Position numbers and translations under genes: made by a program. A stretch of DNA of 64,000 nt from Patescibacteria group bacterium (lineage in GTDB: Bacteria > Patescibacteriota > Microgenomatia > UBA8517), in assembly GCA_035291665.1 (NCBI GenBank), contig DATDRP010000001.1, positions 146,952-210,951 of the forward strand, written 5' to 3'. Of this stretch, positions 21,518 to 50,449 are shown in pieces (position 1 is the first letter of the stretch; each line of letters begins with the position of its first letter). The notes beneath the pieces are model-generated. The model was given only the letters and a program-made list of their open reading frames with translations, was not told the origin of the DNA and did not search any database.

Positions 21518-21550
21518 TTTTATGGTACAATTCACAAACTAAAATATAAC

Positions 21551-21796
21551 ATGGAAAAAATAAATGATGGCATCGATTCGGATAAAGTCGCAAAGGAAAA
21601 TTTCCGTAAAAAATTAATTGTCGAAGTTGCATTAAGGCGGCACAGAGGGATTACACAACATGTATTCAGTAAATTGACTAATGAAGAGTTAGAAAATTCT
21701 TCAAAATCAGTTGATAATATAGAACTTATCAAGACTCCCGATGGTGAGGTTGCAGGATTCAGGATTGTTGATCATAAAAGGAACCCTGAAGAGTAG
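21551..21796 (+). CDS. hypothetical small protein
   Basis: 81-aa ORF with ordinary composition in the gap between PBP1A and pheT; no SD. Confidence 0.3.
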   Translation: MEKINDGIDSDKVAKENFRKKLIVEVALRRHRGITQHVFSKLTNEELENSSKSVDNIELIKTPDGEVAGFRIVDHKRNPEE

Positions 21797-21797
21797 G

Positions 21798-23708: not shown

Positions 23709-23743
23709 ATACGAAAATATTTAATTACTAATTTCATATTCTT

Positions 23744-24772: not shown

Positions 24773-24877
24773 ATAAAAAACTCTCCTAACTAATATTAGC
24801 TGGAGAGTTTGGGAAATACAAAAAACCCCGTCCAGCTTATCAAATATTAAAGCTAAAGCCGAGGAGAATTATAATCA
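24773..24877 (-). promoter_or_regulatory. pheS leader with alternative hairpins (SD-sequestering or terminator-like)
   Basis: Minus strand: ...AGCTGGACGGGGTTTTTTGTATTTCCCAAACTCTCCAGCTAATATTAGTTAGGAGAGTTTTTTATATG. CTCTCC/GGAGAG hairpin + U6 contains the only SD (GGAGAG). AGCTGGA can pair alternatively with TCCAGCT, which overlaps the 5' arm. Confidence 0.4.
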
Positions 24878-25222
24878 TTATTTTTCTTTTACGGAAGAAA
24901 CAATCTTTTCGAATGTTGTTGGATCTTTGATTGCAATTTCTGATAATATTTTTCTGTCTAAACCGATTTTTTTATCACCTAAGGCTTTAACGAATTTTGA
25001 ATAATTCATACCATGTTCTCGGACCGCTGCATTGAGTCTTGTGATCCAGAGTTTCCGTAAATTACGTTTCTTATTTTTTCTTCCGATATAAGCATGTTGT
25101 CCAGCATGAAGAACTGCGTCTTTTGCCGATTGTACACGTTTGCTTCTTGCCTGTTTGTACCCGCGGGCAAGTTTAAGTGTTCTTCTGTGGTTCCTTTGTG
25201 ATGGTGATTTAACTCTGGTCAT
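24878..25222 (-). CDS. rplT: 50S ribosomal protein L20
   Basis: MTRVKSPSQRNHRRTLKLARGYKQARSKRVQSAKDAV... Confidence 0.95.
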   Translation of the reverse strand: MTRVKSPSQRNHRRTLKLARGYKQARSKRVQSAKDAVLHAGQHAYIGRKNKKRNLRKLWITRLNAAVREHGMNYSKFVKALGDKKIGLDRKILSEIAIKDPTTFEKIVSSVKEK

Positions 25223-25226
25223 AGAT

Positions 25227-25421
25227 TTATTTTCCTAATGCTTTTTTTACTTTCTTCGCGAATGTTTTTTTTGAAACAATCATGCCGCTTAACCTTCTTT
25301 TCCGCTTTGAGGATTTTTTTTCATTCAAATGACGTCTGAAGCTCTGACCACGCATAACTTTTCCGTTTTTTGTAATACGCAGGCGTTTTGTCAGAATCTT
25401 TTTTGTTTTTAATTTAGGCAT
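25227..25421 (-). CDS. rpmI: 50S ribosomal protein L35
   Basis: MPKLKTKKILTKRLRITKNGKVMRGQSFRRHL. Confidence 0.95.
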   Translation of the reverse strand: MPKLKTKKILTKRLRITKNGKVMRGQSFRRHLNEKKSSKRKRRLSGMIVSKKTFAKKVKKALGK

Positions 25422-25443
25422 ATGTAAAATCTTAACTCAACAG

Positions 25444-25995
25444 TCACGATTTTACATCGTCTGAGGCTTTTTTGGAAGAAGATGTTGCTGAAATGCTCAT
25501 AATGAGGTGTTTTCCCAAGAATTTGGGTTCCATGTCAACTTTTACCCGCGGCTTTAAATCGGTAAGTAGTTTTTGGAGAAGATCATAGCCGAATTGCTTA
25601 CTGCCTAGCTGTCTGCCTTTAAAAACGACTGCTACGCGTATTTTATTGCGATCGTCGAGAAATTCATTAATTCTTTCAAGCCGGACATTATAGTCATGCG
25701 GCCCAATAAAAGGAGTAAAACGGATTTCTTTAAGTTCTCCGGCTTTACTGCCCTTTTTTTCTTTTCTGGCTTTTTTGTCTTCAAGATATTTGAGCTTTCC
25801 GAGTTCTGTAATTTTTGCAACAGGTGGTTTTGCCATTGGAGCTATTTCTACAAGATCAAACCCTTCTATTTCCGCATGCTTGAGAGCATCCTGCAAACTC
25901 ATGACGCCTAGCTGTTTACCTTCGGAGCTGATGACCCTAAGTTCAGAAGCACGGATCTGATGATTAATTTTCCAGTTGATTTTAGATTTTTTCAA
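25444..25995 (-). CDS. infC: translation initiation factor IF-3
   Basis: INHQIRASELRVISSEGKQLGVMSLQDALKHAEIEGFDLVEIAPMAKPPVAKI; conserved thrS-infC-rpmI-rplT order. Confidence 0.9.
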   Translation of the reverse strand: MKKSKINWKINHQIRASELRVISSEGKQLGVMSLQDALKHAEIEGFDLVEIAPMAKPPVAKITELGKLKYLEDKKARKEKKGSKAGELKEIRFTPFIGPHDYNVRLERINEFLDDRNKIRVAVVFKGRQLGSKQFGYDLLQKLLTDLKPRVKVDMEPKFLGKHLIMSISATSSSKKASDDVKS

Positions 25996-26089
25996 TTTTT
26001 ATTATTTTTTTCGACTTCGGCTGAAAAATACTTCCAATTACAATTATTTTACTAAACTCTTTGTAAATAGCAACAATATCTTTGTAAAT

Positions 26090-27880
26090 TTATCTCTTCA
26101 GGTCTGATTTCCAAATTACTTTATCTTCAATTTCCTTTTTAATATTTTTTATAAAGATATCAAGATCGAACGGACCGTCCACTTCTCCTGACCTGGCTCT
26201 TTCTGTAACTGTCTTATTTTTTACTTCTTTGTCGCCAACAATCAGCATATAGTTTACTTTTTGATTTTGTGCATCACGGATTTTTGCACCCAAAGTTTCA
26301 CTTCTGTCGTCAAGTTCGGTTCGTATATTTTCGGCTTTCAGTCTATTGACTACAGATTCTGCATAAGACAATTGCCTATCGGTAATCGGAAGAACTTTAA
26401 CCTGAACCGGAGCTAGCCAGGTTGGGAAATTGCCTTTGAATTTTTCAATCAAAAATGCCATAGTACGCTCAATACAGCCGATTGCAGCTCGGTGAATAAC
26501 AATCGGTTGAACATCTTTTCCGTTTTTGTCGATATATTTAAGGTCAAATCTTTTTGGCATAACGAAATCATACTGGACCGTGAAGGCTGTTTCTTCCTTT
26601 CCGTTTACTTTTTTAACCTGAACATCAATTTTGGGTCCGTAAAAAGCAGCTTCGTTATCAGCTTCGTAGTAAGGGGCTTTTGTATCAACGAGTACTTTAC
26701 GGAGAATTGCTTCAGCCTCATCCCATTGAGCGTCGTCTTTATAATATTTTTTATTATCTTTCCTGTCACCCAACGACAATCTAAAAAGGTAATCAACACC
26801 TTTTACCAAACCTAAGGTTTGGTTGGCATAATCGATAAGATCCAAGACGGATTTTATCTCATCTATTGCTTTTTCTTTCTGTATGAAGATGTGAGCATCG
26901 TTAAGAGTAAACATTCGTACACGAACTAAACCTGATAGCTCTCCACTTTTCTCATATCGGTGTTGTGAAGCCATTTCTGCATACCTTATGGGTAAATCCT
27001 TATAACTGCGGGTATCTGACTTGAAAAGCATAAAATGATGCGGACAAGTCATTGGCCGAAGGATGAGCTCTTCATCGTCGACTTTCATCACCGGATACAT
27101 TGTGTCTTTGTAATAAGGATAATGACCCGACATCCTGTAAAGATCCGTTTTTGCCAACGGCGGAGTAATAACGTGTTTGTAGCCGCGTTTTATTTCTTCG
27201 TCGACGATAAACCTTTCCAATTCCCGCCTGATTGTTGCGCCTTTATCCGTAAGAAGGGGTAATCCTTTCCCAACAAGATCGGAGAAGGTAAAAAGGCCTA
27301 GTTTTTTACCGATAATTCTGTGATCTGATTCTTTTGCCTCATCAAGAAGTTTGAGGTGGTCATCGAGTTCTTTTTGCGAAAAGAAAGCAGTGCCGTAAAT
27401 ACGGGTCAGCATTTTATTTTTTTCAGACCCCCGCCAATAAGCTCCGGCAATAGAAAGCAGTTTGAAATATTTAAGATTTTTGTCAGGATGTTCGATGTGG
27501 CCTCCTTTGCAAAGATCCCAATAATTCCCGGATTTGTAAAAACTAACTTTCATTTTTCCGTTTTCTGAAAATTCATCTATCATTTCATGTTTGTAAGGGT
27601 TATCAGGGTGTTCTTTTTTTGCATCGTTAGCCGACACAAGATGTTTAACAAATCCTTTCCATGAAGGTTGAATTTTCCGCATTTCGCCTTCAATTTTCGT
27701 AAGGTCTTCATCGGAAATCTTTATATTGTCAAAATCATAATAAAACCCTTCCTCAATTGCAGGTCCGATTGTAGGTTTTGCATTCGGATACAGCTTCAAA
27801 ACCGCAGCAGCCAGGAGGTGGCTTGCGGAATGTCTTAAATGCTCAAGATTTTTATTCTCTTTGTGAACTTTTGTTTTCAT
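26090..27880 (-). CDS. thrS: threonine--tRNA ligase
   Basis: Editing domain LRHSASHLLAAAV, class II core, C-terminal anticodon-binding domain. Confidence 0.95.
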   Translation of the reverse strand: MKTKVHKENKNLEHLRHSASHLLAAAVLKLYPNAKPTIGPAIEEGFYYDFDNIKISDEDLTKIEGEMRKIQPSWKGFVKHLVSANDAKKEHPDNPYKHEMIDEFSENGKMKVSFYKSGNYWDLCKGGHIEHPDKNLKYFKLLSIAGAYWRGSEKNKMLTRIYGTAFFSQKELDDHLKLLDEAKESDHRIIGKKLGLFTFSDLVGKGLPLLTDKGATIRRELERFIVDEEIKRGYKHVITPPLAKTDLYRMSGHYPYYKDTMYPVMKVDDEELILRPMTCPHHFMLFKSDTRSYKDLPIRYAEMASQHRYEKSGELSGLVRVRMFTLNDAHIFIQKEKAIDEIKSVLDLIDYANQTLGLVKGVDYLFRLSLGDRKDNKKYYKDDAQWDEAEAILRKVLVDTKAPYYEADNEAAFYGPKIDVQVKKVNGKEETAFTVQYDFVMPKRFDLKYIDKNGKDVQPIVIHRAAIGCIERTMAFLIEKFKGNFPTWLAPVQVKVLPITDRQLSYAESVVNRLKAENIRTELDDRSETLGAKIRDAQNQKVNYMLIVGDKEVKNKTVTERARSGEVDGPFDLDIFIKNIKKEIEDKVIWKSDLKR

Positions 27881-28094
27881 AATAAAGTTTATAAAATTTT
27901 ATCTTCTTAAAACAAAAAAAGCGTCCTTAAGAAAATTTGCGGGACTCCGCATCTCGGATCAAAACCGACTCTGCGGGGGGTTCCATCCCACTTTCCATAT
28001 AGGACACTTAATTACGTTTAAAGCTTTGAGGTTGGTTGAGTCTCATGCAATCGCTTTATATTCTTAATATATTACGATCTACTACAATTGTCAA
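27881..28094 (-). promoter_or_regulatory. thrS leader: promoter plus structured 5' UTR with terminator-like hairpin (T-box-like candidate)
   Basis: Minus strand TTGACA(28094..28089)-17-TATATT(28071..28066). About 180-nt leader contains GGGATGGAACCCCCCGC (resembles the T-box consensus AGGGTGGNACCGCG) and GCGGAGTCC...GGACGC followed by U7, 30 nt before the ATG. Confidence 0.4.
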
Positions 28095-28099
28095 AAAAG

Positions 28100-28279
28100 T
28101 TATTTAGAATCTTTTCCTTTTTGATTTGTTGTTTCAACTCCCCTGACAACTTTATTAGAGACTTTAAGTCCTTTTAATGCCTCATCTTCGGTAGGTCTGG
28201 TTAAATCCAAACTCCCGCTAGCTGAAGTTTCTACAGTATATTGACTAACTACTGCCTGTTCAGTCGATATTCTTGTCAT
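28100..28279 (-). CDS. hypothetical small protein (59 aa)
   Basis: ATG at 28279 preceded by strong SD AGGGGGTG (10-nt spacer); MTRISTEQAVVSQYTVETSASGSLDLTRPTEDEALKGLKVSNKVVRGVETTNQKGKDSK. Below the ORF-track cutoff. Confidence 0.4.
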   Translation of the reverse strand: MTRISTEQAVVSQYTVETSASGSLDLTRPTEDEALKGLKVSNKVVRGVETTNQKGKDSK

Positions 28280-28523
28280 TATTCTTACACCCCCTAACTA
28301 AATATATATTACGTTTAAACCTATCACCTTCAGTATTATACATAATTTTTATGTAATATGAGGTACCCCGACCGATAAATAGTATAAAGAATGAAGAATA
28401 TAGTAATAGCGTATTTGACAATTTACGTTATTTTCGATACTCCCATGTCACATATAATGATATATGTGACATGATATAGTATACAGGGAGTTATATAGGA
28501 AAAGGGTAAAAGGTGTTGATTAA

Positions 28524-30332
28524 TTACTTAAGGATCTTGTTTTTTCTTCTTTCCTCAACTTCATCAAGAATAATTTTTCTGATTCTGACGCTTTTCGGTG
28601 TAACCTCAACAAGTTCCGTGTTGTCAATGTATTCTAAACTTTCTTCGAGGCTCATAGTTTTAGGGGTATTAAAATGCGCAGTCGGACCATCACCTTTTGA
28701 CCTCATGTTCGATAGTTGTTTTTCTTTACAGACATTGACACTCATGTCGCCGCTTCTTGAGTTTTTCCCGACAACCTCACCTTTATAAACTTTTACGGCA
28801 GGACCATAAAATAGTTCTCCCCTATCCTGAACATTAACAAGTCCGTAAAGACGTGTTTCTCCCGTTTCATGGGCAACAAGCGAACCTTGTTCCCTTGTTC
28901 GTTGGAATCCGTCATCCGGAAGGTAGTCAAAAAATGATGTATTTATGATTCCCAATCCTTTAGTGTCTGTTATAAATTCCGATCTGTAACCGATTAGCTC
29001 TTTTGTGGCAACTGTAAATTCCAGATGAGTTACACCTTCAAAGCTTTGCATGTTGATAAGTTTTGCATGCCGTTTACCCATCTTTTCGATGTTATTTCCG
29101 GTATATTCATCGGGTATTTCAATTTCGACGGTTTCGTAAGGGGTCAGTTTTTTACCGTTAACAATTTTATTAATAACTTGAGGTTGGGAAACCTGGAATT
29201 CAAAGCCTTCCCGTCTCATCCTTTCGATAAAAATAGCTAAATGCAGCTCTCCCCGGCCGGAAACCGTCCATGTACCGTTTTCATTATCTTCCACCCGTAA
29301 AGCCACATCTGTTTCAAGTTCTTTATACAACCGGGCTCTTATTTGGCTAGATGTTTTGAATTCACCTTCATACCCGCCAAAAGGAGAATTATTTACCATA
29401 AAAATCATCTTTACAGTCGGCTCTTCAATATCAAGAAGAGGTAAGGCAGAACCAAGTTTCGGATCGGCAATTGTTTCTCCGATTGTCACGTCGGATATTC
29501 CCGAGACGGCAACAATATCACCCGCGAATGCCTGATTAACATACTCTTTTTCTAAGCCTGTAAAAGTAGCTATTGAAGTTATTGTGCAATTTTTTACAAT
29601 CCCTTTTCGATTAATGTGCGCAATAGTCTGGCCTACGCTTATGGTACCGTTAAAAATTTTTCCGATTGCAATTCTACCTTTATAATCGTCTCTGCCTAGC
29701 GTTGTCACCCTCATCTGAAGTGGTTTGTCGGGATTTGATTGCGGACTCGGGATTGTTTTTATAATTTCATCAAAAACAGGCGTGATGTCTTTCATTGAGG
29801 TCATATCCGGCAGTATTCCCGCCAAACCATTCTTTCCGGAGGCATAGATCACCGGAAAATAAGCAGTTTCTTCATTTGAACCCAAATCAATGAATAAATC
29901 GAAAGTTTTATTTACGATCTGTGACGGGTTGGCGTCTTTCTTATCGATCTTATTGACAACAACGATGATCTTAAGTCCCATTTTTAATGCCTGTTTCAGA
30001 ACAAACCTCGTCTGAGGCATTGGACCTTCTTTTGCATCAACCAAAAGAAGAGCTCCATCAGCCATTGAAAGAACCCGTTCGACTTCTCCCCCAAAGTCAG
30101 CGTGACCCGGTGTGTCAATGATATTAATTTTGTTATTTTTATAAACGACTGAGGCGTTCTTTGAGAAAATTGTTATACCGCGTTCTCTTTCGATCTCATT
30201 TGAGTCCATAATTTGGTTTGTTTCTGAGAGCGTTTTATCCAAGTGTGTATGCGACTGGCGCAAAAGCGCATCCACAAGGGTAGTTTTACCGTGGTCGACA
30301 TGTGCAATAATAGCGACATTTTTTATATCCAT
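28524..30332 (-). CDS. typA: translational GTPase TypA/BipA
   Basis: G1 AIIAHVDHGKTTL, EF-G-like domains; start moved to MDIKNVAII (30332) from the track's 30440, whose N-extension is non-conserved. Confidence 0.9.
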   Translation of the reverse strand: MDIKNVAIIAHVDHGKTTLVDALLRQSHTHLDKTLSETNQIMDSNEIERERGITIFSKNASVVYKNNKINIIDTPGHADFGGEVERVLSMADGALLLVDAKEGPMPQTRFVLKQALKMGLKIIVVVNKIDKKDANPSQIVNKTFDLFIDLGSNEETAYFPVIYASGKNGLAGILPDMTSMKDITPVFDEIIKTIPSPQSNPDKPLQMRVTTLGRDDYKGRIAIGKIFNGTISVGQTIAHINRKGIVKNCTITSIATFTGLEKEYVNQAFAGDIVAVSGISDVTIGETIADPKLGSALPLLDIEEPTVKMIFMVNNSPFGGYEGEFKTSSQIRARLYKELETDVALRVEDNENGTWTVSGRGELHLAIFIERMRREGFEFQVSQPQVINKIVNGKKLTPYETVEIEIPDEYTGNNIEKMGKRHAKLINMQSFEGVTHLEFTVATKELIGYRSEFITDTKGLGIINTSFFDYLPDDGFQRTREQGSLVAHETGETRLYGLVNVQDRGELFYGPAVKVYKGEVVGKNSRSGDMSVNVCKEKQLSNMRSKGDGPTAHFNTPKTMSLEESLEYIDNTELVEVTPKSVRIRKIILDEVEERRKNKILK

Positions 30333-30505
30333 AATTGGAAAAGTATAGTGAAAAATTCGAATCAAAAAAAATGCCGAGCTAATCTCGGCTTGTTTTCTTA
30401 ACCTAAACGATATTTTACTCTTATTTAAGCTAATTAACAATTAAATTGGTTTTTCATAAACTCCTTTTACATATTTCACTTAATCTTGTAAAATATCACT
30501 CACTA

Positions 30506-31804: not shown

Positions 31805-32581
31805 TTACCATTTTTCATAATTATCTTCTATGAAATTGAAATGTATATTAAATTTGTTTTGAAGATGATTTCCAAGAGCAATAACTCCCCATTTTTCTGT
31901 ATTATAATGTCCTGCTGCAACGTATACGATTCCCAGTTCATTGCATAATGCGATAACTCCTTCATCAATGTTGCCCGACACATAGCAATCAATATTGTTA
32001 AATTTTGTTTCATAAAAATATTCAGATCTTGCTCCACCCCCGCTTATTACTGAAATATTATTAACACTCCTTACATTTCTTGGCCAGATTATTTCTAAAG
32101 GTTTAATATTAAGACAACTTTTTAAATATTTCTCCAATCCATATTTATCTGAAATAGCTTTGGGTAGCTTGCCGGAATAGCCAATCTTTATTCCATGATA
32201 TTCACCGAATTTTTCAACATGCTTCAGTTTAAGCAATTTAACCAATTGCGTATTATTTCCGTATATTTCATTAACATCGAGCGGAATATGATAGGAAATA
32301 TAAGAGATATTATTTTCATTTAAGAAATTTATTCTGTCTTTAAATGAATATAAAAACGGTTGGGACTCTATTTTCAAAAGTCCATGATGGGCGAGTATTA
32401 AATCTGGTTTATTTTTCAATGCTTTTTGAAATACATTAATATTGGGTGAAACAATTCCGGTTATTTTTGATATTTCACTGTTATTTGATACGAGTTCGAG
32501 ACCATTGACAAAAGATCTTTCAGGGATACTACCTTGATTCAAAATCTTATCCAGATATTTCGTTAATTTAAATATATCCAT
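31805..32581 (-). CDS. Nif3-family dinuclear-metal protein (GTP cyclohydrolase 1 type 2 homolog)
   Basis: LILAHHGLL ... YISYHIPLD ... VAAGHYNTEKWG: conserved His clusters of the NIF3/YqfO family. Confidence 0.75.
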   Translation of the reverse strand: MDIFKLTKYLDKILNQGSIPERSFVNGLELVSNNSEISKITGIVSPNINVFQKALKNKPDLILAHHGLLKIESQPFLYSFKDRINFLNENNISYISYHIPLDVNEIYGNNTQLVKLLKLKHVEKFGEYHGIKIGYSGKLPKAISDKYGLEKYLKSCLNIKPLEIIWPRNVRSVNNISVISGGGARSEYFYETKFNNIDCYVSGNIDEGVIALCNELGIVYVAAGHYNTEKWGVIALGNHLQNKFNIHFNFIEDNYEKW

Positions 32582-33810
32582 TAATTTAATAATAATACTG
32601 ATTGGTCTCTCATTGGATAACTGTTTTCAGGTTTCGCATATACAGCACTAAACTGATCAATTGATATATTACTTTTTCTTATTGCATTATCAAGGGTTCG
32701 GGTTCGATCTTCAAAAGATTGCATTACTAAAGTGCAATTGTCAATCCTTGCTCTTTCAATGATATATGCTAAAACATTTTCTCCGGTGAAATATCTTCGG
32801 TGCCCATTGTGCTTGAATAATTCGCCGACAAACTTTTTGGGCTTTACTGCCTCATCCAGCCTTTTATGATAATTTATTGGAGAAATATTACTTTTTAGTA
32901 TTTCATCAACGCATCTCGAAGTTATTTCAGTGGGTTCGTAGACAGTAAAAATATCCCAGATGTCTTCTTTTTGAATACCTTTTTCGGTTAGTAAGCGATT
33001 GAAAAAAGCATTAGGATCACTTCTTTTAATGGGTTCTTTATTATCCATTCCCAGATCCTTTTTAATAGCTGAGTAGTCTCTGTTTTCCATAGCAGAGCAA
33101 ATCATTTTATTTAATTTATTACCGGCTTCAATTAAGGTTAAAGACCCTTCAGCGTATTCGGTAAGTAACGTGTTTAGTATGTAGGTTTCAAATCTTTTTA
33201 CAATCCTATTCCTTAATTCTTTTGGAAACACTAAATCGAACGCATCTTGGTCAATTTTTTTACCAGCATATAAATTATATTTAATTTCATTTCCCGATGT
33301 ACTGGGTGGAACGGAAACAACTTTAGTTTCAATTGAATTTCTTTTAAAATGTAGATCGAGAACGTGTTGGTCAAATTCTGCAAAAGAATCTGCAAGAGAC
33401 ATTTGAGCCCTGGTTGTATTGTGATTTAGAGAAAAATTCAGATATCCCAGACTATGTATAAATTTATTAAATACCGCAGGTTTAGTCTCCACTTCGTCCG
33501 CAGGTTTTGTAAAATCTACTGAAGCGCTTTCTTCGCCAGTAATTAATTCGCAAAAACTACTTTGAATTGAATTTTGATCGCGCTCAGATAAACCGTTTGT
33601 CAGATTAATAAAATATTTTGATACAGGTACGGCCGGAATCGGAACAACGATGAATTTATTCGGTGTTCCGTAGGCTTTTATAGTGTCTACTGCACTGAAA
33701 ACATTATTAGCTGTAATTGGACCCCTGCGCGATCCAGGCACGAAATATACCGGTTTTCCTTGTATACTTTCTTTACCCCCTTCTTCAGTAAACAAATGTT
33801 CGTGTCCCAT
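32581..33810 (-). CDS. hypothetical protein (409 aa), co-directional with the aromatic operon
   Basis: No recognisable family; start codon directly preceded by a hairpin + U-tract and its own TTGACA-17-TAAAAT promoter. Confidence 0.5.
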   Translation of the reverse strand: MGHEHLFTEEGGKESIQGKPVYFVPGSRRGPITANNVFSAVDTIKAYGTPNKFIVVPIPAVPVSKYFINLTNGLSERDQNSIQSSFCELITGEESASVDFTKPADEVETKPAVFNKFIHSLGYLNFSLNHNTTRAQMSLADSFAEFDQHVLDLHFKRNSIETKVVSVPPSTSGNEIKYNLYAGKKIDQDAFDLVFPKELRNRIVKRFETYILNTLLTEYAEGSLTLIEAGNKLNKMICSAMENRDYSAIKKDLGMDNKEPIKRSDPNAFFNRLLTEKGIQKEDIWDIFTVYEPTEITSRCVDEILKSNISPINYHKRLDEAVKPKKFVGELFKHNGHRRYFTGENVLAYIIERARIDNCTLVMQSFEDRTRTLDNAIRKSNISIDQFSAVYAKPENSYPMRDQSVLLLN

Positions 33811-34016: not shown

Positions 34017-35336
34017 TTATATTCTTTCTACGACAAGGAAACTGGTGTAATTTTCTTTGGCATCCTGAAGATTATCCTCAACAATTCTTAAATCATAAAT
34101 TTGAGCTAATATTTTACTTCCCATGACAGCTGTATTTTTCCCCAACGTCCTTTCTGATAGTCGTTTTGCCACAAGTGCATGGTCAACTAATTTTCCTTTT
34201 CCTGATATTCTTTTCAGATAAGGATATTTTTCATCTAATGTCCTTTGGCATTGCGCAAAAACCTGAGGATGAGACATGATTGAATCAACTTCTCCAAAAG
34301 TTGCGTCTGATCGAATCATTAGAGCATGAGATATTTTTATTGAAAATTGATCAGTTATATTAAATTTGTATTTTGACATTGCCTCAATACTTTCTCCCAC
34401 CACCCCGCCTAATGAATTATGTATAGCAAACTGACCAAGGTCTATGCTTCCTTCATGTAGTGCCTTGAGGACTGCACCGGATGTATAAAGGAATTTAATT
34501 TTATATTTTTTATCGGTTTCTCTCTCGAAATAATATTTGGCTGCTTCTTCATTAAAACTACCCCTACCTCCTTGTATACCATAAGTGACGAAGTTCTTAT
34601 TGACTGCTTTTGGAAGCAGTTTGTTATAAAGCGAATCATATTTTTCACCTATTTTTATGCGCATTTCTTTTGTATAGGAGTTGTAATTTTGTAAATTTAA
34701 AAATAATTGCATGGTGTCATTACATGTTTGATTTTTGACCTCAAGTAGTTTTTTGGTTCCAAGAGTGTCAATTTCAGAAGGTGATAAACCGAAAGAATCA
34801 AGTAGTCTTCCGATAAAATGTGTTAATCCCTGAGAATTTGCAGCTATTTTGTCGTGTTTTTGCGGAGACATCTCAATCACTTTAAGTCCCTTTTGGGTAA
34901 AGTAATTTTTCCAAAACTTGAAATTATTATTGTTAGATAAAAAACGATTTAAAACGATTGGCAGATTTGAAAATCCACCTTTACTGCTATCTGGACCAAA
35001 CATTGGATGTGTAAGGATTGCCTGTGTTTTTAATCCCTTCAAATGTTTTGTTAAAATTTTAGCCGGATGCATTTTTACAGACAGAACATCTATGAGCAAG
35101 TGATTATCTGAGAAGTATGATTTGTGGGCAGAAATAACATTCTCAAATTCATCTATAGGAACTGCAATAAATATTATTTCCGATTTATATACTTCTTTAA
35201 TATTTTCTGCAATCTTTAAACCATCCTTATGGGCAATCACTTTTTTGTCAAAGACAATTACATCAAAGTCAGATTTCAATAAACGATATAAAACCTGACC
35301 AAATCTTCCATAACCCACAATGCTTATTTTTTTCAT
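34017..35336 (-). CDS. bifunctional prephenate dehydrogenase / prephenate dehydratase (TyrA-PheA fusion, no ACT domain)
   Basis: N-terminal NAD-binding ISIVGYGRFGQ and HPMFGP (prephenate dehydrogenase). C-terminal PDT catalytic domain: TYGIQGGRGSFNEEAA, SHPQVFAQC, TSFLVV. Confidence 0.8.
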   Translation of the reverse strand: MKKISIVGYGRFGQVLYRLLKSDFDVIVFDKKVIAHKDGLKIAENIKEVYKSEIIFIAVPIDEFENVISAHKSYFSDNHLLIDVLSVKMHPAKILTKHLKGLKTQAILTHPMFGPDSSKGGFSNLPIVLNRFLSNNNNFKFWKNYFTQKGLKVIEMSPQKHDKIAANSQGLTHFIGRLLDSFGLSPSEIDTLGTKKLLEVKNQTCNDTMQLFLNLQNYNSYTKEMRIKIGEKYDSLYNKLLPKAVNKNFVTYGIQGGRGSFNEEAAKYYFERETDKKYKIKFLYTSGAVLKALHEGSIDLGQFAIHNSLGGVVGESIEAMSKYKFNITDQFSIKISHALMIRSDATFGEVDSIMSHPQVFAQCQRTLDEKYPYLKRISGKGKLVDHALVAKRLSERTLGKNTAVMGSKILAQIYDLRIVEDNLQDAKENYTSFLVVERI

Positions 35337-35626
35337 AAGTCATTAATTTCTTCTATTATCTGACTTTCAATTGTCAATGATTCCTCATGAAGTCTTTCGA
35401 AAATGTCCAAAATTAATTTCTCAGACAATCCCAATTTTCTACCAATTTCAATTCTATTTTTTATGACCTTATCCCATCTGTTTTGATCCAATGGTATTAT
35501 TTTATTCTCTTTTTTTAAAATCCCAACTTTTTTGACAAGCTCAATACGTTTCGAAATTATAGAAACTAAAGCCACGTCGTTTTCATCAATTTGAATCCGC
35601 AAATCATTTAATATTTCTCTTCCCAT
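35333..35626 (-). CDS. chorismate mutase (AroQ class)
   Basis: 97 aa; LRIQIDENDVALVSIISKRIELVKKVG...RWDKV: AroQ helical CM. Confidence 0.8.
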   Translation of the reverse strand: MGREILNDLRIQIDENDVALVSIISKRIELVKKVGILKKENKIIPLDQNRWDKVIKNRIEIGRKLGLSEKLILDIFERLHEESLTIESQIIEEINDL

Positions 35627-35629
35627 ATT

Positions 35630-36604
35630 TTAAGATAAATTTTTTTGCTCGACAAAATCGGGTGATCTTAAATTTCTGAATCTTGCCAAATCCTGAAGCA
35701 GGCACCTCAACTCGTCATGTGTTATATGTTGTTCGGAATCTGTGATAGATTCTCCGGCTTCGATTAAAAGTCCGTCATAAAGCCAATTATTACCATCTTT
35801 CATTCTCATTACTTTTATTGATTCATCAACGATTTTGTTTCTCATGTTTGGTCCACAGCTGTGGCTGGGGTCAAAAAATAATCGAGCTCCGATTACAGAT
35901 CTTTTTGTATGTCTGGCAATTTCATGGACAGGTGCACTTCGCCATTCACCTTTATCTGGTGAATCGATACCTCTGTGGATAAATATCAATCTTTCATTAT
36001 TTTGCGCAAAACTTGCCTGTCCGCTCCATTGTCTTTGAAGTGCGCTTCCACTATATTTTACAGGATCATTCGACATATCAAGAGAAATATCAAGGTTTTT
36101 AGCGTTTTTCACTCCCTGAAACCAGATGTTTCTCCTTGCATATTCTCCCATCGTAAGTTGAGCATATCCAAGACCCTCAACCGAAGGCTGCCAGATTAAG
36201 AGTTTTTCTGGTTGGATTCTTCCCTCATATTGTGGCAATTGAACACTCGGCATCATTATCTCAGTTGCAATTAGAAGTCCTGTTTCTTTGACTATTTTTA
36301 TTCCTGCCTCAACGCTCGGCGGTGGTGCAGTGGGAAGCGGGTTTTTAAGGACAATGATATTTTCTTTACATTCAAAATAATAATTAAAATCTGCCCCCAT
36401 CGGACTTTTTCCATCTAAATTAGTTCGGGATTTAAGTCCAACTACTCGTGTACCCCACAAACATGTTTGGATTTGACCTTTTATATTTCTAACCTTAATT
36501 TCCGAAAGATCATAGTATCCGGATAGATTTCTCACGAGTTCCAAATCTACCGAACATGGACCGGCTATAACTTCTGTGTCAAATTGATTTAATGATTCTG
36601 ACAT
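35630..36604 (-). CDS. 3-deoxy-7-phosphoheptulonate (DAHP) synthase, class I-beta (KDO8PS-like)
   Basis: VIAGPCSVD and FDPSHS motifs of the I-beta DAHPS/KDO8PS family; first gene of the aromatic operon. Confidence 0.8.
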   Translation of the reverse strand: MSESLNQFDTEVIAGPCSVDLELVRNLSGYYDLSEIKVRNIKGQIQTCLWGTRVVGLKSRTNLDGKSPMGADFNYYFECKENIIVLKNPLPTAPPPSVEAGIKIVKETGLLIATEIMMPSVQLPQYEGRIQPEKLLIWQPSVEGLGYAQLTMGEYARRNIWFQGVKNAKNLDISLDMSNDPVKYSGSALQRQWSGQASFAQNNERLIFIHRGIDSPDKGEWRSAPVHEIARHTKRSVIGARLFFDPSHSCGPNMRNKIVDESIKVMRMKDGNNWLYDGLLIEAGESITDSEQHITHDELRCLLQDLARFRNLRSPDFVEQKNLS

Positions 36605-36615
36605 ATTTATACATT

Positions 36616-36639
36616 AAAAAACCCCGACTATGCGGGGTT
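36616..36639 (-). terminator. attenuator terminator 2
   Basis: AACCCCG-CATAGT-CGGGGTT + T6; its 5' arm CCCCGCAT is also complementary to upstream ATGCGGGG (36670..36663). Confidence 0.7.
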
Positions 36640-36669
36640 GGTATTTTTACATAGAGAATTTTCCCCGCA

Positions 36670-36726
36670 TTAGTTAGGATAAAAATAATAAAAACTAAAC
36701 AGATTGTTTTTGTAAATATTGTTCAT
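36670..36726 (-). CDS. leader peptide 2 (MNNIYKNNLFSFYYFYPN)
   Basis: 18 codons, 7 Phe/Tyr; SD AGGAGGG 13 nt upstream; stop TAA overlaps the 5' strand of the antiterminator (TAATGCGGGG). Confidence 0.6.
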   Translation of the reverse strand: MNNIYKNNLFSFYYFYPN

Positions 36727-36840
36727 ACTTCAATAGCACCCTCCTAATTTTCACACTTGGCTTTTTGGGAACTATTCGTTCACGCCTCGTGCCAAAATTG
36801 GTCGGAGGGTTATGTACTATTTGAAAATTACAAAGTACAT

Positions 36841-36867
36841 AAAAAAACCTCCTAACTCTAGGAGGTT
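36841..36867 (-). terminator. attenuator terminator 1
   Basis: AACCTCCTA-GAGT-TAGGAGGTT followed by T7 (read on the minus strand). Confidence 0.7.
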
Positions 36868-36920
36868 GATTTTCTGGGATTTATTTAATTAAACCAAATA
36901 AACTCGCCCCCTAGGGTTTC

Positions 36921-36965
36921 TTAGGAGGTAAAGTAAAAATAAAATTTTACCGAATTTATTTTCAT
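36921..36965 (-). CDS. leader peptide 1 (MKINSVKFYFYFTS)
   Basis: 14 codons with FYFYF run; stop UAA lies inside segment 1 (ACCUCCUAAG); starts ~10 nt after the -10 box (leaderless-like). Confidence 0.5.
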   Translation of the reverse strand: MKINSVKFYFYFTS

Positions 36966-37029
36966 ATTAGAGGTTATTATAGATATTTATAAAACTATTG
37001 TCAATAATTCAAAAGCTATTCAAAATATA

Positions 37030-37674
37030 CTATCCTGCTGATCTTGTTACGTAATGTTCGCCGGAAAGCAAAAACTTTGCTCCGTGTTTTTTGTATGAGC
37101 TCCAATAATTTTTCTTTTGTGCCCTTTTATTAACTGAAAAGAGCCAATTGGTGGACTCCTGAATGTTCTTTCTGAATGAAATGATAAAACTCAAAAGTTT
37201 TTCAAAAAATACAACGTGATAAATTCCAGGTTCAATTGGTGCTTGCATCGATGCAATTTCAACTTGGGTACCGAGACCTGATGTGGTTTTTGCCAATAAT
37301 ATTACCTCATCAGTAATTGCTTTCAGCTGCATTCGAAGTTCGTTTGTCTTTTTTTGAATCATCAATGATTCTTCCTGATGAAGTCGTCTTTCAAAAGTTA
37401 TTTGTTTTTGTAATTTATCTCTTTCTTCTTTTTGGGCTTTGGCAATGGGATTGAACTCCAATGATTCACCCGGATGCAGTTCGCCGGAATAATTTGGTGC
37501 ACTTTGCGGACCGAATAATTGATCCATAAAATCACCCGGCATCTTGTCAAAAAGGTCTTGTTTGATCGATTTTGCTGTTGATGTGCCCACGTCTTTTAGG
37601 GATTCCAAAACATTCGGTTGATTTTGACTTTTTTGGCCTTTCCCCGATTTGCTCTTAGGATTGTTGTTAGGCAT
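37030..37674 (-). CDS. hypothetical protein with coiled-coil
   Basis: 214 aa; Lys/Gln-rich N-terminus, central coiled coil; no recognised motif. Confidence 0.5.
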   Translation of the reverse strand: MPNNNPKSKSGKGQKSQNQPNVLESLKDVGTSTAKSIKQDLFDKMPGDFMDQLFGPQSAPNYSGELHPGESLEFNPIAKAQKEERDKLQKQITFERRLHQEESLMIQKKTNELRMQLKAITDEVILLAKTTSGLGTQVEIASMQAPIEPGIYHVVFFEKLLSFIISFRKNIQESTNWLFSVNKRAQKKNYWSSYKKHGAKFLLSGEHYVTRSAG

Positions 37675-37754
37675 ATAATTATCCTATAATAACTTCAACG
37701 GTGATGATATTCTACCAAAAAATTATATATTTTACAACCGGACCTAAGTACAAA

Positions 37755-38666
37755 TTATACTAATGAAGTCAGGAAATCAAGCGCTTTTCTTCTTTGCAGT
37801 ATGACTCTGATCACAGATCTTTGTTCGGGAGTTTCTCCACTATTTTTCAGATTGGGGTCTGAATGGCTTGCCTTGATTGCCTCGTCTATGTCTTTATCAT
37901 CAACATTTAATGATTCATTTTTAGCTATTTTTTCCAGTATAAGTTCGAGTCTTATAGCTTTCTCGGATTGATCTTTATAATCACTTCGTATTGATTGTGC
38001 GGTTTTTCCGATTGAATTGAGGTATGAATCTAGTGTTAGACCCAATTTTTCGGTCTGTTCAAGAAGCTTTGATAATCTTGTGTTTACTTCTTCATCAATA
38101 AGAACGGTTGGGACAATAAAATTTATTGTTTTAAGTAAAATATTTATAACTTTTTGTTCTTTTTCCTGACGGGAAAGCCCTTTATCGTCAACGTCCTTAT
38201 TTTTTCCGGGAGTCCATATTTTACCTGAAGCGAGTTCGGTTTTAATGGGATCCTTATAGTTCCCCAATTCAAATTCCGTTATTTGACAAGTTGTCGCACG
38301 GATTTGCCACGTTTCATTTTGTTGTGCGTTAATGAGTTCGAATTTAGGAAAAACAGCCGGTCGGATTTTTTCTGACATAATGACTTCGTTAAACATTTGA
38401 GGCAATAGTCCCGAAAGCGTCTGTTGAATTAATTTATCCCTGGATACCGCCGATTCAATTTTATCAAGCGGGGCTTTTCCTTTTCTGAATCCGGCGATTT
38501 CAAGATCTTTACCCAATTCATGAAGAGCTTTTGTTTTATTTTCTTCAACCGTCTTCCAGGGTATATTGAATGTAATTTGAATCGTTCCGTCATCCTGTTT
38601 GGCTACAATCGGTTTAAAATCCTGATTTACGGACTTTTTCTGATTTTTTATGTTTGTTTTTGCCAT
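37755..38666 (-). CDS. tig: trigger factor (short form)
   Basis: Ribosome-binding signature GFRKGKAP in the N-domain; 303 aa, shorter than canonical ~430 aa. Confidence 0.75.
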   Translation of the reverse strand: MAKTNIKNQKKSVNQDFKPIVAKQDDGTIQITFNIPWKTVEENKTKALHELGKDLEIAGFRKGKAPLDKIESAVSRDKLIQQTLSGLLPQMFNEVIMSEKIRPAVFPKFELINAQQNETWQIRATTCQITEFELGNYKDPIKTELASGKIWTPGKNKDVDDKGLSRQEKEQKVINILLKTINFIVPTVLIDEEVNTRLSKLLEQTEKLGLTLDSYLNSIGKTAQSIRSDYKDQSEKAIRLELILEKIAKNESLNVDDKDIDEAIKASHSDPNLKNSGETPEQRSVIRVILQRRKALDFLTSLV

Positions 38667-41810: not shown

Positions 41811-43205
41811 TTATAAGTTTTTTATCAATGTAAAAAGACTAAAGCCTCCGTATAAAAATATACCTCCTAAAATCATAGCACGTCTAAAAGTTGTTGGCCT
41901 GATTGCATACGGTAGTGATTTTGTATTCAATATGTAAAGCATCACGGAATAGAAAAACATTGTTATAGCATTAAGAACCGCTCCGGTAATCACCAGTTTC
42001 AATGGTTCATTAAATCCCAAAAGCATGATTACTATTCCGGCAAGGATCTGAAACCATAAAAATAAATAGAAATATTTTGATAATTTATTAACGCTGAATT
42101 TTTTCGGAGATGCGAGGACAAGATTTTCCGACATAATTCTTGCAGTAGACGCAAACACGGAAAATTGTGTCCCAAATAGCATCAAAGCTGCAACAAGTAC
42201 AAATGCAGTTCCAACAAATAAAGTCGTTTTTTCAGATATAAAGGAAGATTCACGCAATAAAAAATTAATACCGTTTTCGATACCAGGTGCTTTATAGGCT
42301 GTTGAGTAAGCCAATAGTGAGAGCATGAGCATTGTTAAAAGTCCGGTTCCCCAAAAGACTACAAGATGTTCGAGATTTATTCTTTTCCACCAGAGTCTGA
42401 ATAATTTTAGATTTTCGATACTTTGTCGGAAAAGAGATCCGGTTAAGCTTAATTTTTCAGTCTTTTTGGAAAATAAAGCCGTAATTTTCCCCGAATATTT
42501 TCCCATACCATAACCTTTTTCCTTAACGTAATAAGATTGGGCTAAGTTTAGATTGCCTCCGGCTCCGGCATATGCAAGGGCGCCTAAAAAAGTTGCCATC
42601 ACAATCCCTTCAGGTAGAAAAATAAATCCCTCGCCGATCCCAAAAATACCTTTCCCTAAAGACAGCCAATCAGTTGGTTTTGCCAATATAAATGTCAGAA
42701 GCAAAACAAACGGTATACCGATAAAAATTATTGATTTTTGAAATTTCTCCTGAGTTTTATAAAGGTATGATCCCGAACTTAAGATTGCACCGATTAATAT
42801 AAGCAATATTATCGGGAACGTAATATTATATTTAAGTCCGAATGCGGCTGTAAAAAGCTTTGCCGATGTAGCAATAATTCCCGGCCAAATCCATGGGAGA
42901 AACGTTGATAATAAAAACCAATATGATGATAGTTTCCCGAACTTTCTCCGAAGACCTGTAAAAATGCTTTCACCGGTTGCCAGGGTATATCTTTCTATTT
43001 CCATATTCAGAAAAAATTGCATTGTAATTCCGAGAACTGCTCCCCATATTATGCCCAAACCATAATTTGAAGAAAGGTATGGCCACAAAATAAGCTCCCC
43101 GCTCCCTAATCCCAATCCCAAAAGAATAAAGCTCGGGCCGACTAATTTTGAAAACGGCAGCGGTTTGGGCAAATCGTGTTCGGAGATCTTCAAATCCTTA
43201 TCCAT
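41811..43205 (-). CDS. polytopic membrane transporter, NRAMP-like (divalent metal)
   Basis: ~11 TM segments; GPSFILLGLGLGSGELILWPY resembles the NRAMP TM1 (GPGFLMS...DPGN). Confidence 0.45.
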   Translation of the reverse strand: MDKDLKISEHDLPKPLPFSKLVGPSFILLGLGLGSGELILWPYLSSNYGLGIIWGAVLGITMQFFLNMEIERYTLATGESIFTGLRRKFGKLSSYWFLLSTFLPWIWPGIIATSAKLFTAAFGLKYNITFPIILLILIGAILSSGSYLYKTQEKFQKSIIFIGIPFVLLLTFILAKPTDWLSLGKGIFGIGEGFIFLPEGIVMATFLGALAYAGAGGNLNLAQSYYVKEKGYGMGKYSGKITALFSKKTEKLSLTGSLFRQSIENLKLFRLWWKRINLEHLVVFWGTGLLTMLMLSLLAYSTAYKAPGIENGINFLLRESSFISEKTTLFVGTAFVLVAALMLFGTQFSVFASTARIMSENLVLASPKKFSVNKLSKYFYLFLWFQILAGIVIMLLGFNEPLKLVITGAVLNAITMFFYSVMLYILNTKSLPYAIRPTTFRRAMILGGIFLYGGFSLFTLIKNL

Positions 43206-50364: not shown

Positions 50365-50449
50365 ATTATGTGTATTGTAAGGATATATGATTGATGCAAA
50401 TTATGTCAAAAGTAATCATAGATAAGAAATATATTTGTGGCTGGAATTG

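Follow-up and report, generated by a model that had tools for sequence, protein, structure and literature searches.

A predicted phenylalanine- and tyrosine-regulated operon encoding a TyrA-dehydratase fusion in a Patescibacteria genome

Introduction

Bacteria belonging to the Candidate Phyla Radiation (CPR) are generally auxotrophic symbionts, and dedicated aromatic amino acid genes in one of them raise the question of what these genes encode, how they are controlled and whether they still function. The window examined here, a 64,000-nt stretch of contig DATDRP010000001.1 from a Patescibacteria group bacterium, carries on its minus strand a three-gene module that a first-pass annotation had described as a DAHP (3-deoxy-D-arabinoheptulosonate 7-phosphate) synthase, a separate AroQ chorismate mutase (CM) and a 439-aa fusion of prephenate dehydrogenase to prephenate dehydratase. 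We consider it likely that the module works as an operon under the control of Phe and Tyr availability, which encodes the entry and exit steps of the biosynthesis of these two amino acids and in which a TyrA dehydrogenase of the arogenate type is fused to the dehydratase. Positions given below are those of the window, and all elements of the operon and its leader are on the minus strand.

A dehydrogenase-dehydratase fusion with an arogenate-type residue

The three open reading frames (ORFs) lie at 35630-36604 (324 aa), 35333-35626 (97 aa) and 34017-35336 (439 aa), exactly where they had first been placed, and every motif cited for them is present in the translations. These coordinates, together with domain searches, bear out a three-gene aromatic module. 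Three nucleotides separate the stop codon of the DAHP synthase gene from the start of the CM gene, whose own stop codon overlaps the start of the fusion gene (ATGA). The same locus is contained in independent JGI (447 kb), ENA (352 kb) and Logan assemblies, which rules out misassembly as the source of the fusion; the 324-aa protein is also recorded, in identical form, on a 519-kb contig of a Patescibacteria metagenome-assembled genome (MAG).

Both parts of the proposed fusion score above their Pfam gathering thresholds. PDH_N (PF02153) matches residues 44-154 (E 2.9e-15, 56.5 bits against a cutoff of 26.5), and PDT (PF00800), which had been predicted for residues ~250-439, was detected at residues 253-438 (E 1.1e-35, 123.5 bits against a cutoff of 25.2, profile positions 2-178 of 181). 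From Pfam, PDB and family alignments we place a plant-type TyrA dehydrogenase in residues 1-245 (34602-35336), and from Pfam, the family alignment and an AlphaFold2 (AF2) model the catalytic domain of a PDT-family dehydratase in residues 250-439 plus the stop codon (34017-34589). Both domains are folded in the AF2 model of the whole chain (pLDDT 86.5).

Residue conservation was assessed in an alignment of 121 sequences, comprising the window protein and 120 relatives. The GxGxxG motif of the dehydrogenase half occupies residues 8-13, with G8, G10 and G13 conserved in 120-121 of the sequences. The best PDB match of this half is soybean PDH1 (GmPDH1; E 5e-25), and precomputed Pfam assignments add a TYRAAT1_C domain. 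Catalytic S86 and H110 align to Ser101 and His124 of GmPDH1 and are conserved in 118/121 and 121/121 family members, respectively. D207 (codon 34716-34718) aligns, with no gaps nearby, to GmPDH1 position 222, represented in the PDB by the wild-type N222 and the mutant D222, and Asp at this position is invariant throughout the family (121/121). Arogenate dehydrogenase activity is conferred by an acidic residue at position 222, as shown for plant, spirochaete and alpha-proteobacterial enzymes, and prephenate dehydrogenase activity by Asn or Gln (Schenck et al. 2017, PMC5681985); swapping the residue also swaps specificity in plant, spirochaete and archaeal enzymes (PMC5681985). Arogenate specificity is predicted because D207 stands at the equivalent of this position, and the half first named a prephenate dehydrogenase is probably an arogenate dehydrogenase, which would yield tyrosine itself rather than a keto-acid precursor.

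The dehydratase half ends with N429-Y-T431-S-F433-LVVERI directly before the stop codon. As had been noted, Pfam finds no ACT domain (PF01842) in the 439-aa protein. Indeed none is possible, since only six residues remain after the motif at the TRF position, here TSF; 4-6 residues follow this motif in 109/121 relatives. The fusion is therefore without the C-terminal ACT domain, with its GALV and ESRP motifs, that marks canonical PheA and the plant arogenate dehydratases (ADT). Stand-alone versions of both halves are found in the related CPR locus L009, namely a 267-aa TyrA with the same Ser, His and Asp and a PDT of 220 aa that lacks ACT and has the TSF ending too.

Distribution and related architectures

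A word-indexed homolog search with the fusion returned 1402 relatives. The best 120, which we examined, are all ~440 aa long with the same architecture and come from Woese-, Pace-, Davies- and Levybacteria, Saccharimonadia and other groups. The best of these matches is 68% identical: the 439-aa protein of the window was itself missed, although public contigs have it as a called gene, so that absence from the word-indexed list is not evidence of absence. By a scan of GTDB with one genome per species, the fusion was found in at least 368 genomes, all of them Patescibacteria where the labels are credible. The best 80 of the 368 encode full-length fusions and belong to Microgenomates, Saccharimonadales, Gracilibacteria, Peribacteria and Torokbacteria, besides obviously mislabelled MAGs; the carriers in Saccharimonadales include a closed 1.1-Mb chromosome. 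An exhaustive search of 1.84 billion cluster representatives recovered ~25 clusters of full-length fusions, with identity down to 33%. It also revealed other architectures that combine TyrA and PDT, namely TyrA-PDT-ACT, CM-TyrA-PDT-ACT, PDT-ACT-TyrA and PDT-TyrA-CM, as well as PDT-TyrA-aminotransferase proteins of 900-1040 aa. Asp is found at position 222 in 24 of 27 representatives across these architectures, every aminotransferase-containing one included.

The description of the fusion as unusual thus holds against the textbook T- and P-proteins and not beyond them, given that this architecture is standard across at least 368 Patescibacteria genomes at species level and that related architectures are public. 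In the literature open to our search we found no description of a direct ACT-less TyrA-PDT fusion, the only protein described being the TyrA-AroQ-PheA-ACT of Archaeoglobus and Huberarchaea. The fusion, common to hundreds of CPR species, appears undescribed.

A set of proteins of ~880-1040 aa (P0405, P0420, P0421, P0434, P0435, P0456, P0467 and P0473) matches both halves of the fusion, and all have Asp at the TyrA specificity position. P0405 and P0435 consist, according to Pfam, of PDT, TyrA and a class I/II aminotransferase, that is, all three post-prephenate enzymes of the arogenate route in one chain; P0420, P0421, P0434, P0456, P0467 and P0473 are probably also trifunctional, to judge from their length and two-stretch match.

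DAHP synthase and chorismate mutase

The assignment of the 324-aa protein (35630-36604) as a class I-beta DAHP synthase (DAHPS) was the least secure part of the first-pass annotation. It is confirmed by profile, fold, ligands and context, with the amendment that the protein is not a canonical Ibeta enzyme and belongs to a divergent CPR subfamily of 300-340 aa. Its scores stay below the curated cutoffs of both Pfam PF00793 (DAHP_synth_1; 18 bits against 25.5) and NCBIfam NF006421 (18.8 against 335), a single-sequence search found no relatives in the PDB, and identity to the canonical 255-aa CPR DAHPS is only 24%. The subfamily is almost confined to CPR, where it is mostly annotated as 'hypothetical'. 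A profile of 36 family sequences, however, matches class Ibeta DAHPS structures only. The metal ligands C17, H248, E282 and D289 and the R211 that binds phosphoenolpyruvate (PEP), the latter in an (E/H)RG motif, are invariant in the 36 sequences and correspond to C102, H272, E298, D309 and R237 of Thermotoga maritima DAHPS, while K58-S59-R60-T61 (KSRT) is found where the canonical enzyme has KPRT. The AF2 model is of high confidence (pLDDT 91.2, pTM 0.91), and its top 17 Foldseek matches in the PDB are all DAHPS, with KDO8P synthases from rank 18.

Gene context was counted in 80 related loci. The divergent DAHPS is present in 15 and the canonical one in 27, in the same slot, and both together in none; most of the 15 loci where the divergent form is the sole candidate are otherwise complete shikimate operons, and in L007 too it is the only DAHPS of an otherwise complete operon. 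These counts bear on the alternative that the 324-aa protein is some other PEP-utilising aldolase, either a KDO8P synthase or an enzyme of new specificity, whose adjacency to CM is coincidental. Such an enzyme could account for the scores below the Pfam and NCBIfam cutoffs, the low identity to canonical CPR DAHPS, ~65 extra residues, KSRT in place of KPRT and the KDO8P synthases lower in the fold ranking. Against it stand the profile search and the 17 best folds, which point to DAHPS alone, and a Cys-His-Glu-Asp metal site that is accompanied by a K-x-R-T motif and not by KANRS, the motif typical of KDO8PS. The protein is, moreover, the sole candidate for the DAHPS slot in those 15 loci, never occurs alongside a canonical DAHPS, and is encoded directly behind the Phe/Tyr attenuator described below. 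We regard the alternative as very improbable and, judging from these sequence and model comparisons, take the 324-aa protein to be a divergent but genuine DAHPS.

The 97-aa protein (35333-35626) matches the CM_2 domain (PF01817) with 63.6 bits against a cutoff of 27 (E 1.9e-17), as had been expected of an AroQ mutase, and NCBIfam agrees. In an alignment of CPR mutases, R10, R27, K38 and R50 are invariant in 59 sequences. We take these to be the equivalents of E. coli CM R11, R28, K39 and R51, the E. coli sequence serving as landmark, with a cross-check against 1ybz. The CPR CM gene usually adjoins the DAHPS or the fusion gene; the CM of Mycobacterium tuberculosis relies for its activity on a partner, its DAHPS. 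CPR AroQ mutases also read Arg-Trp where the enzymes of E. coli and Pyrococcus furiosus have Arg-Glu, the Glu being active-site Glu52.

Two predicted leader-peptide attenuators in series

Regulation at the attenuator level, which the first-pass annotation had proposed, is strongly supported by a promoter, two leader peptides, alternative hairpins and covariation in relatives. In the 425 nt upstream of the DAHPS gene there are, besides the promoter, two strong terminator-like hairpins and one weaker hairpin (36928-36907). The promoter (36976-37004), identified by a consensus scan, is of the sigma-70 type, TTGACA-17 nt-TATAAT, with 12/12 consensus matches. Leader ORF A (36921-36965), which encodes MKINSVKFYFYFTS followed by a stop codon, includes five consecutive Phe/Tyr codons (FYFYF); because it begins 11 nt after the -10 hexamer, translation would start near-leaderless. 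It was identified by an ORF scan and a shuffle test, and homologs are present in L010 and L011.

Attenuator A shows a four-region layout (1:2/2:3/3:4). Its hairpin 1:2 (CCUCCUA...UAGGGGG; 36907-36928) was recognised by hairpin scan, folding and covariation in 39 leaders. There is overlap between region 1 and the end of leader ORF A (its final two sense codons and its stop codon), and region 2 (CUAGGGGG, 36914-36907) can alternatively pair with the 5' arm of terminator T1, forming an antiterminator; with region 1 masked and no region 4 present, folding gives this 2:3 pairing -16.8 kcal/mol. Regions 3:4 are terminator T1 itself (36840-36867), which consists of AACCUCCUA-GAGU-UAGGAGGUU and a U-run, has a folding energy of -12.6 kcal/mol and was supported by hairpin scan, folding and covariation. 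Right after the T1 U-run the ORF scan places the start of a mini-ORF, MYFVIFK followed by a stop codon (36817-36840). Its status is uncertain; by comparison, the ATG at this position in L011 starts leader B directly.

Leader ORF B (36670-36726) encodes MNNIYKNNLFSFYYFYPN before its stop codon. It has Phe or Tyr in six of seven consecutive codons (FSFYYFY) with GGAGG 13 nt upstream, and was identified by ORF scan, shuffle test and its L011 homolog. The end of this ORF plus the 7 nt after its stop codon (UGCGGGG) make up the antiterminator segment CCUAACUAAUGCGGGG (36663-36678), which folding and covariation show to be complementary to terminator T2 (36614-36639; AACCCCG-CAUAGU-CGGGGUU and a U-run, -10.6 kcal/mol). 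T2, for which hairpin scan, folding and covariation agree, ends ~10 nt before the DAHPS start codon. In the full-length minimum free energy structure the CCUAACUAAUGCGGGG:T2-arm pairing forms, and masking by a ribosome at the stop codon leaves T2 only.

Comparable leaders were found in related loci. In L004-L007 and L009, peptides such as MNIFNQSYFWFNYF..., MAFVNKNYFWFYFTSP... and MLQKSSHRFYFFFYFTR..., each with a terminator, lie upstream of the operon. An unbiased scan of the 80 loci yielded, on the operon strand, 35 intergenic ORFs that are rich in aromatic residues and have a terminator, ~30 of them directly upstream of the first aromatic gene, compared with 3 on the opposite (control) strand, where two are upstream of DAHPS operons on that strand and one is unexplained. 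The consensus of the homologous leaders is NYFWFYFT. L011, whose fusion protein is 68% identical to that of the window, has the same tandem of A and B behind a TTGACA-17-TATATT promoter, its leader B homolog ending in VFNFYYFNPS before the stop codon. For the pairing analysis we used 39 leaders from loci with fusion proteins 54-68% identical to the window's, and hairpin arms were taken by strict inverted-repeat detection. In 39/39 leaders a partner of the terminator 5' arm is found 7-16 nt past the aromatic run, with a stability similar to that of the terminator, and the pairs co-vary (GGGAGG/CCUCCC, GCGGGG/CCCCGC, GGGGG/CCCCC, GAGGG/UCCCUC). Cognate pairings average -11.16 kcal/mol against -9.39 kcal/mol for non-cognate ones, a mean reached in none of 50000 permutations, and 36/39 leaders beat shuffled spacers at z < -1.64. 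A Trp codon is present in the leaders of 16/22 full operons and 4/12 reduced clusters (Fisher p = 0.036, not corrected for phylogeny). We found no report of leader-peptide attenuators in CPR in the literature.

It might be argued that the leader ORFs arise by chance in AT-rich intergenic DNA and that the hairpins are terminators of the upstream DUF5660 gene or insulators, with no attenuation at all. TTT and TAT are frequent triplets at 33% GC, and all Rfam families fall below their gathering scores. However, among 5000 dinucleotide-preserving shuffles an ORF with at least 6/7 Phe/Tyr codons appeared in 4 and an A+B pair in 0, and small ORFs with Phe or Tyr in at least five of seven codons number only ten in the whole window, two of them in the leader region. 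A perfect promoter stands between the upstream gene and the leaders, and across the 39 leaders there is conservation of the peptides, of where the pairing partner lies and of the covariation. We give chance leaders hardly any credence.

Operon context and the route to Phe and Tyr

Most of the 80 loci have a complete operon with the fusion at its end, which runs from DAHPS through dehydroquinate synthase (DHQS), EPSPS (5-enolpyruvylshikimate-3-phosphate synthase), shikimate kinase (SK), shikimate dehydrogenase (SDH), dehydroquinase (DHQase), chorismate synthase (CS), CM and, in some, an aminotransferase to the fusion. Aromatic biosynthesis genes, which had been thought unexpected in a CPR-like genome, are therefore no anomaly among these relatives. 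For 66 loci with enough upstream sequence we recorded the gene directly upstream of the fusion, which is a class I aminotransferase in 32 and CM in 22. The order CM-aminotransferase-fusion is that of the reactions of the arogenate route and so fits D207. When we compared the operon-linked aminotransferase of the relatives with PDB and NCBIfam, the nearest models were DapL/DapC-like and below cutoffs, which was not discriminating.

Reduced clusters of DAHPS, CM, an optional aminotransferase and the fusion, lacking nearby core genes, make up ~10 of the 80 loci and include L010 and L011, the two closest relatives. L006 is the one reduced-cluster genome where the location of the core genes could be checked: DAHPS and the fusion are at one site, and DHQS-EPSPS-SK/SDH-DHQase-CS-CM lie ~20 kb away on the same contig, each of the two sites behind its own NYFWFYFT leader.

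The alternative to an arogenate route is a keto-acid route, in which the two halves would act as prephenate dehydrogenase and prephenate dehydratase and a general aromatic aminotransferase would convert the resulting 4-hydroxyphenylpyruvate and phenylpyruvate. Prephenate is the substrate of most bacterial PDT-family enzymes, both halves are called 'prephenate' enzymes by Pfam and NCBIfam, and GmPDH1, the closest protein in the PDB, also acts as a prephenate dehydrogenase. In the window operon CM and the fusion are not separated by an aminotransferase gene, and the aminotransferase of the relatives, left unassigned by NCBIfam, is about equally like aromatic aminotransferases (1dju) and prephenate aminotransferase (5wmh). 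On the other hand, the use of prephenate by GmPDH1 is due to Asn222, and exchanging Asp and Asn at this position interconverts the two specificities (PMC5681985); the window protein and all 120 relatives have Asp there. Likewise, the gene order seen in 32/66 loci fits transamination before the dehydrogenase step, and the PDT-TyrA-aminotransferase proteins with Asp fit early transamination too. We regard a keto-acid route as unlikely. The route may well be mixed, with Tyr made via arogenate and Phe via phenylpyruvate, and this is counted here under the arogenate-type operon that we favour.

Several observations weigh against a functional, attenuated operon with an arogenate-type dehydrogenase. 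The rule for position 222 comes from work on TyrA clades I and II, and membership of the CPR enzymes is judged from their similarity to PDB and Pfam entries. The AF2 model of the fusion has a pTM of 0.63 with no confident interdomain geometry. In the dehydratase half the canonical TRF reads T431-S432-F433: across the family the Thr (121/121) and Phe (120/121) are retained, and Arg is replaced by Ser in 102/121 sequences and by Thr in 13. Published determinants of arogenate versus prephenate use by dehydratases lie in the ACT/PAC region (PMC13217925), and with that region absent the substrate of this half cannot be assigned from sequence. The mutase has Trp51 at the position of E. coli CM Glu52. 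Trp is found there in 47/59 CPR CMs, complete operons included, and we rejected decay of the CM as an explanation since the change is family-wide and also occurs in complete operons; it is best seen as a trait of the CPR CM family.

The leader, too, departs from what current models describe. No Rfam family reached its gathering score in the leader region, which current models miss. The best match was Phe_leader (RF01859) with 31.7 bits (E 0.002; gathering score 55) at 36963-36839, a match that begins immediately within the start codon of leader ORF A and runs slightly beyond the T1 U-run, and the same model gives 17.4 bits on attenuator B. We suggest that the leader functions like the RF01859 family without being a member of it. 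In equilibrium folding of the full RNA the terminators remain competitive, and the attenuation model relies on co-transcriptional kinetics and on transcription-translation coupling, the latter presumptive in CPR.

Finally, L010 and L011 keep an aminotransferase between CM and the fusion, whereas the window operon does not, and the core shikimate genes and an aminotransferase were not found in the 64-kb window. Searches of the window by TBLASTN with L004 and L005 probes for DHQS, DHQase I/II, SDH, SK, EPSPS, CS and aminotransferase gave no match, and Pfam analysis of 30 further window ORFs revealed no core shikimate gene or aminotransferase. A search with the chorismate synthase of L013 as query found none on this genome's contigs among the matches listed, all of which are at least 79% identical to the query. 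The completeness of the pathway in this genome is unproven.

The module could accordingly be a remnant or serve salvage, the steps from DAHP to chorismate having been lost and the genes either decaying or using intermediates such as chorismate or prephenate from a host or community. The negative searches for the six core genes and the aminotransferase in the window and for chorismate synthase, the reduced clusters in ~10 of the 80 loci and the general auxotrophy of CPR bacteria would all agree with this. Yet the three ORFs are intact with invariant catalytic residues, and a DAHP synthase would be of little use without the downstream steps. The two attenuators are conserved with a relative whose fusion is 68% identical, which implies selection on regulated expression, and in L006 the core operon lies ~20 kb from the reduced cluster. 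The chorismate synthase search is uninformative here, its listed top 120 matches all being at least 79% identical to the query. A remnant or salvage module appears to us quite improbable, and we retain the functional operon as the preferred explanation.

A model for the operon

Transcription from the consensus promoter would pass two leader-peptide attenuators in series, in each of which a ribosome would translate a short ORF with interleaved Phe and Tyr codons. When charged tRNA-Phe or tRNA-Tyr is scarce, the ribosome is expected to stall in the codon run, and the G-rich downstream segment, left free, would base-pair with the terminator's 5' arm as an antiterminator, so that RNA polymerase reads through. 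When Phe and Tyr are plentiful, the ribosome would reach the stop codon and cover the G-rich segment, the terminator would form and transcription would end. Of the encoded enzymes, DAHP synthase would condense PEP and erythrose-4-phosphate to DAHP at the entry to the pathway and the AroQ mutase would convert chorismate to prephenate. The N-terminal half of the fusion would convert arogenate to tyrosine, and its C-terminal half would make either phenylalanine from arogenate or phenylpyruvate from prephenate. Genes for the aminotransferase and for the six steps between DAHP and chorismate would have to lie elsewhere in the genome. Because neither half of the fusion has an allosteric domain and the two are produced at a constant 1:1 ratio, control would be transcriptional, with a response to either amino acid. 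Feedback at the RNA level that senses both products may match the absence of allosteric domains.

A stronger version of this model makes the fusion a single-substrate branch point, both halves acting on L-arogenate at 1:1, without allostery and under tandem Phe/Tyr leaders, and a plant-like, arogenate-only pathway with a lineage-wide attenuator would then be standard in Patescibacteria, bacteria for which ribosome-mediated attenuation was not known before. We put this forward tentatively, as somewhat less probable than an even chance.

The pathway and mechanisms are all of known kinds. What appears new is the fusion variant, the divergent DAHPS subfamily and the CPR-wide leader attenuator, which is doubled in tandem in this operon. 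CPR bacteria are usually called host-dependent auxotrophs, and this locus and its relatives indicate that hundreds of species keep de novo synthesis of Phe and Tyr. The design is economical, joining an arogenate-type dehydrogenase to a dehydratase that has no allosteric domain and placing feedback at the RNA level. For enzymology the fusion offers a compact natural arogenate dehydrogenase-dehydratase with a clear specificity residue, D207, and a naturally ACT-less dehydratase. The conserved leaders imply working transcription-translation coupling in CPR, and NYFWFYFT with two hairpins is a ready signature for annotating CPR aromatic operons. As the divergent DAHPS subfamily scores below Pfam and NCBIfam cutoffs, reconstructions of CPR pathways will wrongly count the first step as missing.

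Neighbouring genes and other observations

The window encodes RecG, TyrRS, PBP1, PheRS beta/alpha, IF3, ThrRS and BipA at 15330-30440, and DUF5660 and trigger factor at 37030-38666. Much of this flanking gene set also flanks the fusion in L005, L006 and L009, and the shared synteny argues for vertical inheritance. The GC content of the module region is 33%, close to the 31-42% of the window. Recent lateral acquisition was rejected, since GC is similar to that of the window and PheRS, TyrRS, ThrRS-IF3 and trigger factor are syntenic in distant relatives too; judged by these two features, there is no sign of recent transfer.

Upstream of DAHPS, other loci carry genes of sugar metabolism. A PfkB-family sugar kinase of ~310 aa lies directly upstream in L010, L013, L016, L028, L039, L046, L048, L055 and L059 (kinase regions L010:6667-7605, L028:2691-3605 and L013:510-2305), and in 6 of these 9 (L010, L013, L028, L046, L048 and L055) a Phe/Tyr/Trp leader precedes the kinase. 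In L013 the kinase is followed by a class II fructose-bisphosphate aldolase. Kinase and aldolase may form a route of the sedoheptulose-bisphosphate type that supplies erythrose-4-phosphate under the same attenuator. Other loci have transketolase and transaldolase instead of the PfkB kinase.

Just past the fusion stop codon, the segment 33811-34016 (minus strand) contains a second strong promoter, TTGACA-17-TAAAAT, at 34001-33973, a Leu/Ile-rich ORF of 29 codons (MKNLFLTTEQVLLSIISLLIRGGVNMVRD and a stop codon; 33960-33871, minus strand), an internal CCUCCUC/GAGGAGG hairpin and a terminator (33841-33820). These elements, which may be another leader or attenuator, precede a gene for a 409-aa protein without Pfam or NCBIfam match (32581-33810) and NIF3. 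The 409-aa gene was dropped from the module because it has its own promoter, small ORF and terminator. As a candidate conserved partner of the fusion it was rejected, being unrelated (E 0.6) to the 435-aa no-Pfam protein of L009. That protein (L009:10945-12252) is encoded between a DAHPS-like gene and the stand-alone plant-type TyrA, in a Phe/Tyr cluster with two leader-peptide attenuators. Further large minus-strand ORFs of the window lacking Pfam matches, besides the 409-aa one, are at 41811-43205 (464 aa), 51387-52970 (527 aa) and 55126-56094 (322 aa).

Thirteen tRNA genes are scattered over ~12 kb at 49360-61841, including tRNA-Phe(GAA) at 53595-53668; no tRNA-Tyr was found in the window. 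A small ORF, MIYYRYYYDRKCS (62874-62915, minus strand), has 5 Tyr in 7 codons and overlaps the annotated start of a PLD-like gene (61844-62893); its Tyr run may be due to chance.

Comparison with known systems

The E. coli T-protein (CM-PDH) and P-protein (CM-PDT-ACT) are likewise bifunctional and are built from the same TyrA, PDT and AroQ families, as partial NCBIfam matches indicate. They fuse consecutive steps, a mutase and one branch enzyme, and are feedback-inhibited, whereas the protein described here joins competing branch enzymes, has neither a mutase nor an allosteric domain and probably acts after transamination. The TyrA-AroQ-PheA-ACT protein of Archaeoglobus fulgidus, found also in Ca. 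Huberarchaea, resembles it in having TyrA and PDT on one chain (PMC1173090, PMC11237513); here, by contrast, CM is a separate gene, ACT is absent and the TyrA is plant-type with an arogenate-type Asp.

Among dehydrogenases, the plant arogenate dehydrogenases (Arabidopsis TyrAAT1/ADH) and soybean PDH1 (5t9e, 5t95) are closest: PDH1 is the nearest solved structure, TYRAAT1_C and the catalytic Ser and His are shared, and the plant arogenate dehydrogenases have the same Asp at position 222. The CPR protein differs in its identity of ~30% to the plant enzymes and in its fusion to a dehydratase. Its beta-strand 2 ends in Asp30, which, by the Rossmann-fold rule, suggests that the TyrA half uses NAD+ in contrast to the NADP+ preference of the plant enzymes, the family being variable at this position. 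The 324-aa DAHPS shares with the Ibeta enzymes of T. maritima (1rzm) and P. furiosus (1zco) a TIM barrel (TM 0.6-0.75), the Cys/His/Glu/Asp site and the (E/H)RG and DPSH motifs. It differs from them in an identity of 14-18%, in reading KSRT for KPRT, in scoring below curated family cutoffs and in its ~65 additional residues, chiefly between strand beta-1 and the KxRT motif.

At the level of operon design, E. coli aroF-tyrA, which is regulated by the TyrR repressor, and the attenuator-controlled tyrA supraoperons (e.g. Thermus aroAIbeta>tyrA) likewise co-transcribe DAHPS with branch enzymes and keep entry and branch genes apart from those of the common pathway; here a single operon covers both Phe and Tyr through the fused enzyme. 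Attenuators precede tyrA supraoperons in several phyla (Song et al. 2005, PMC1173090 Table 7). With the E. coli pheA leader (RF01859) and the classic trp and phe attenuators, the leader shares a short ORF containing regulatory codons, a U-run, and antiterminator and terminator hairpins that exclude each other. Beyond this design its sequence is unrelated to the pheA leader, and Phe and Tyr codons are interleaved, with Trp added in relatives. Unlike the classic attenuators it comprises two units in tandem in a CPR host, and attenuator B is simpler than the classic layout, a two-state device in which the end of the ORF is itself the antiterminator.

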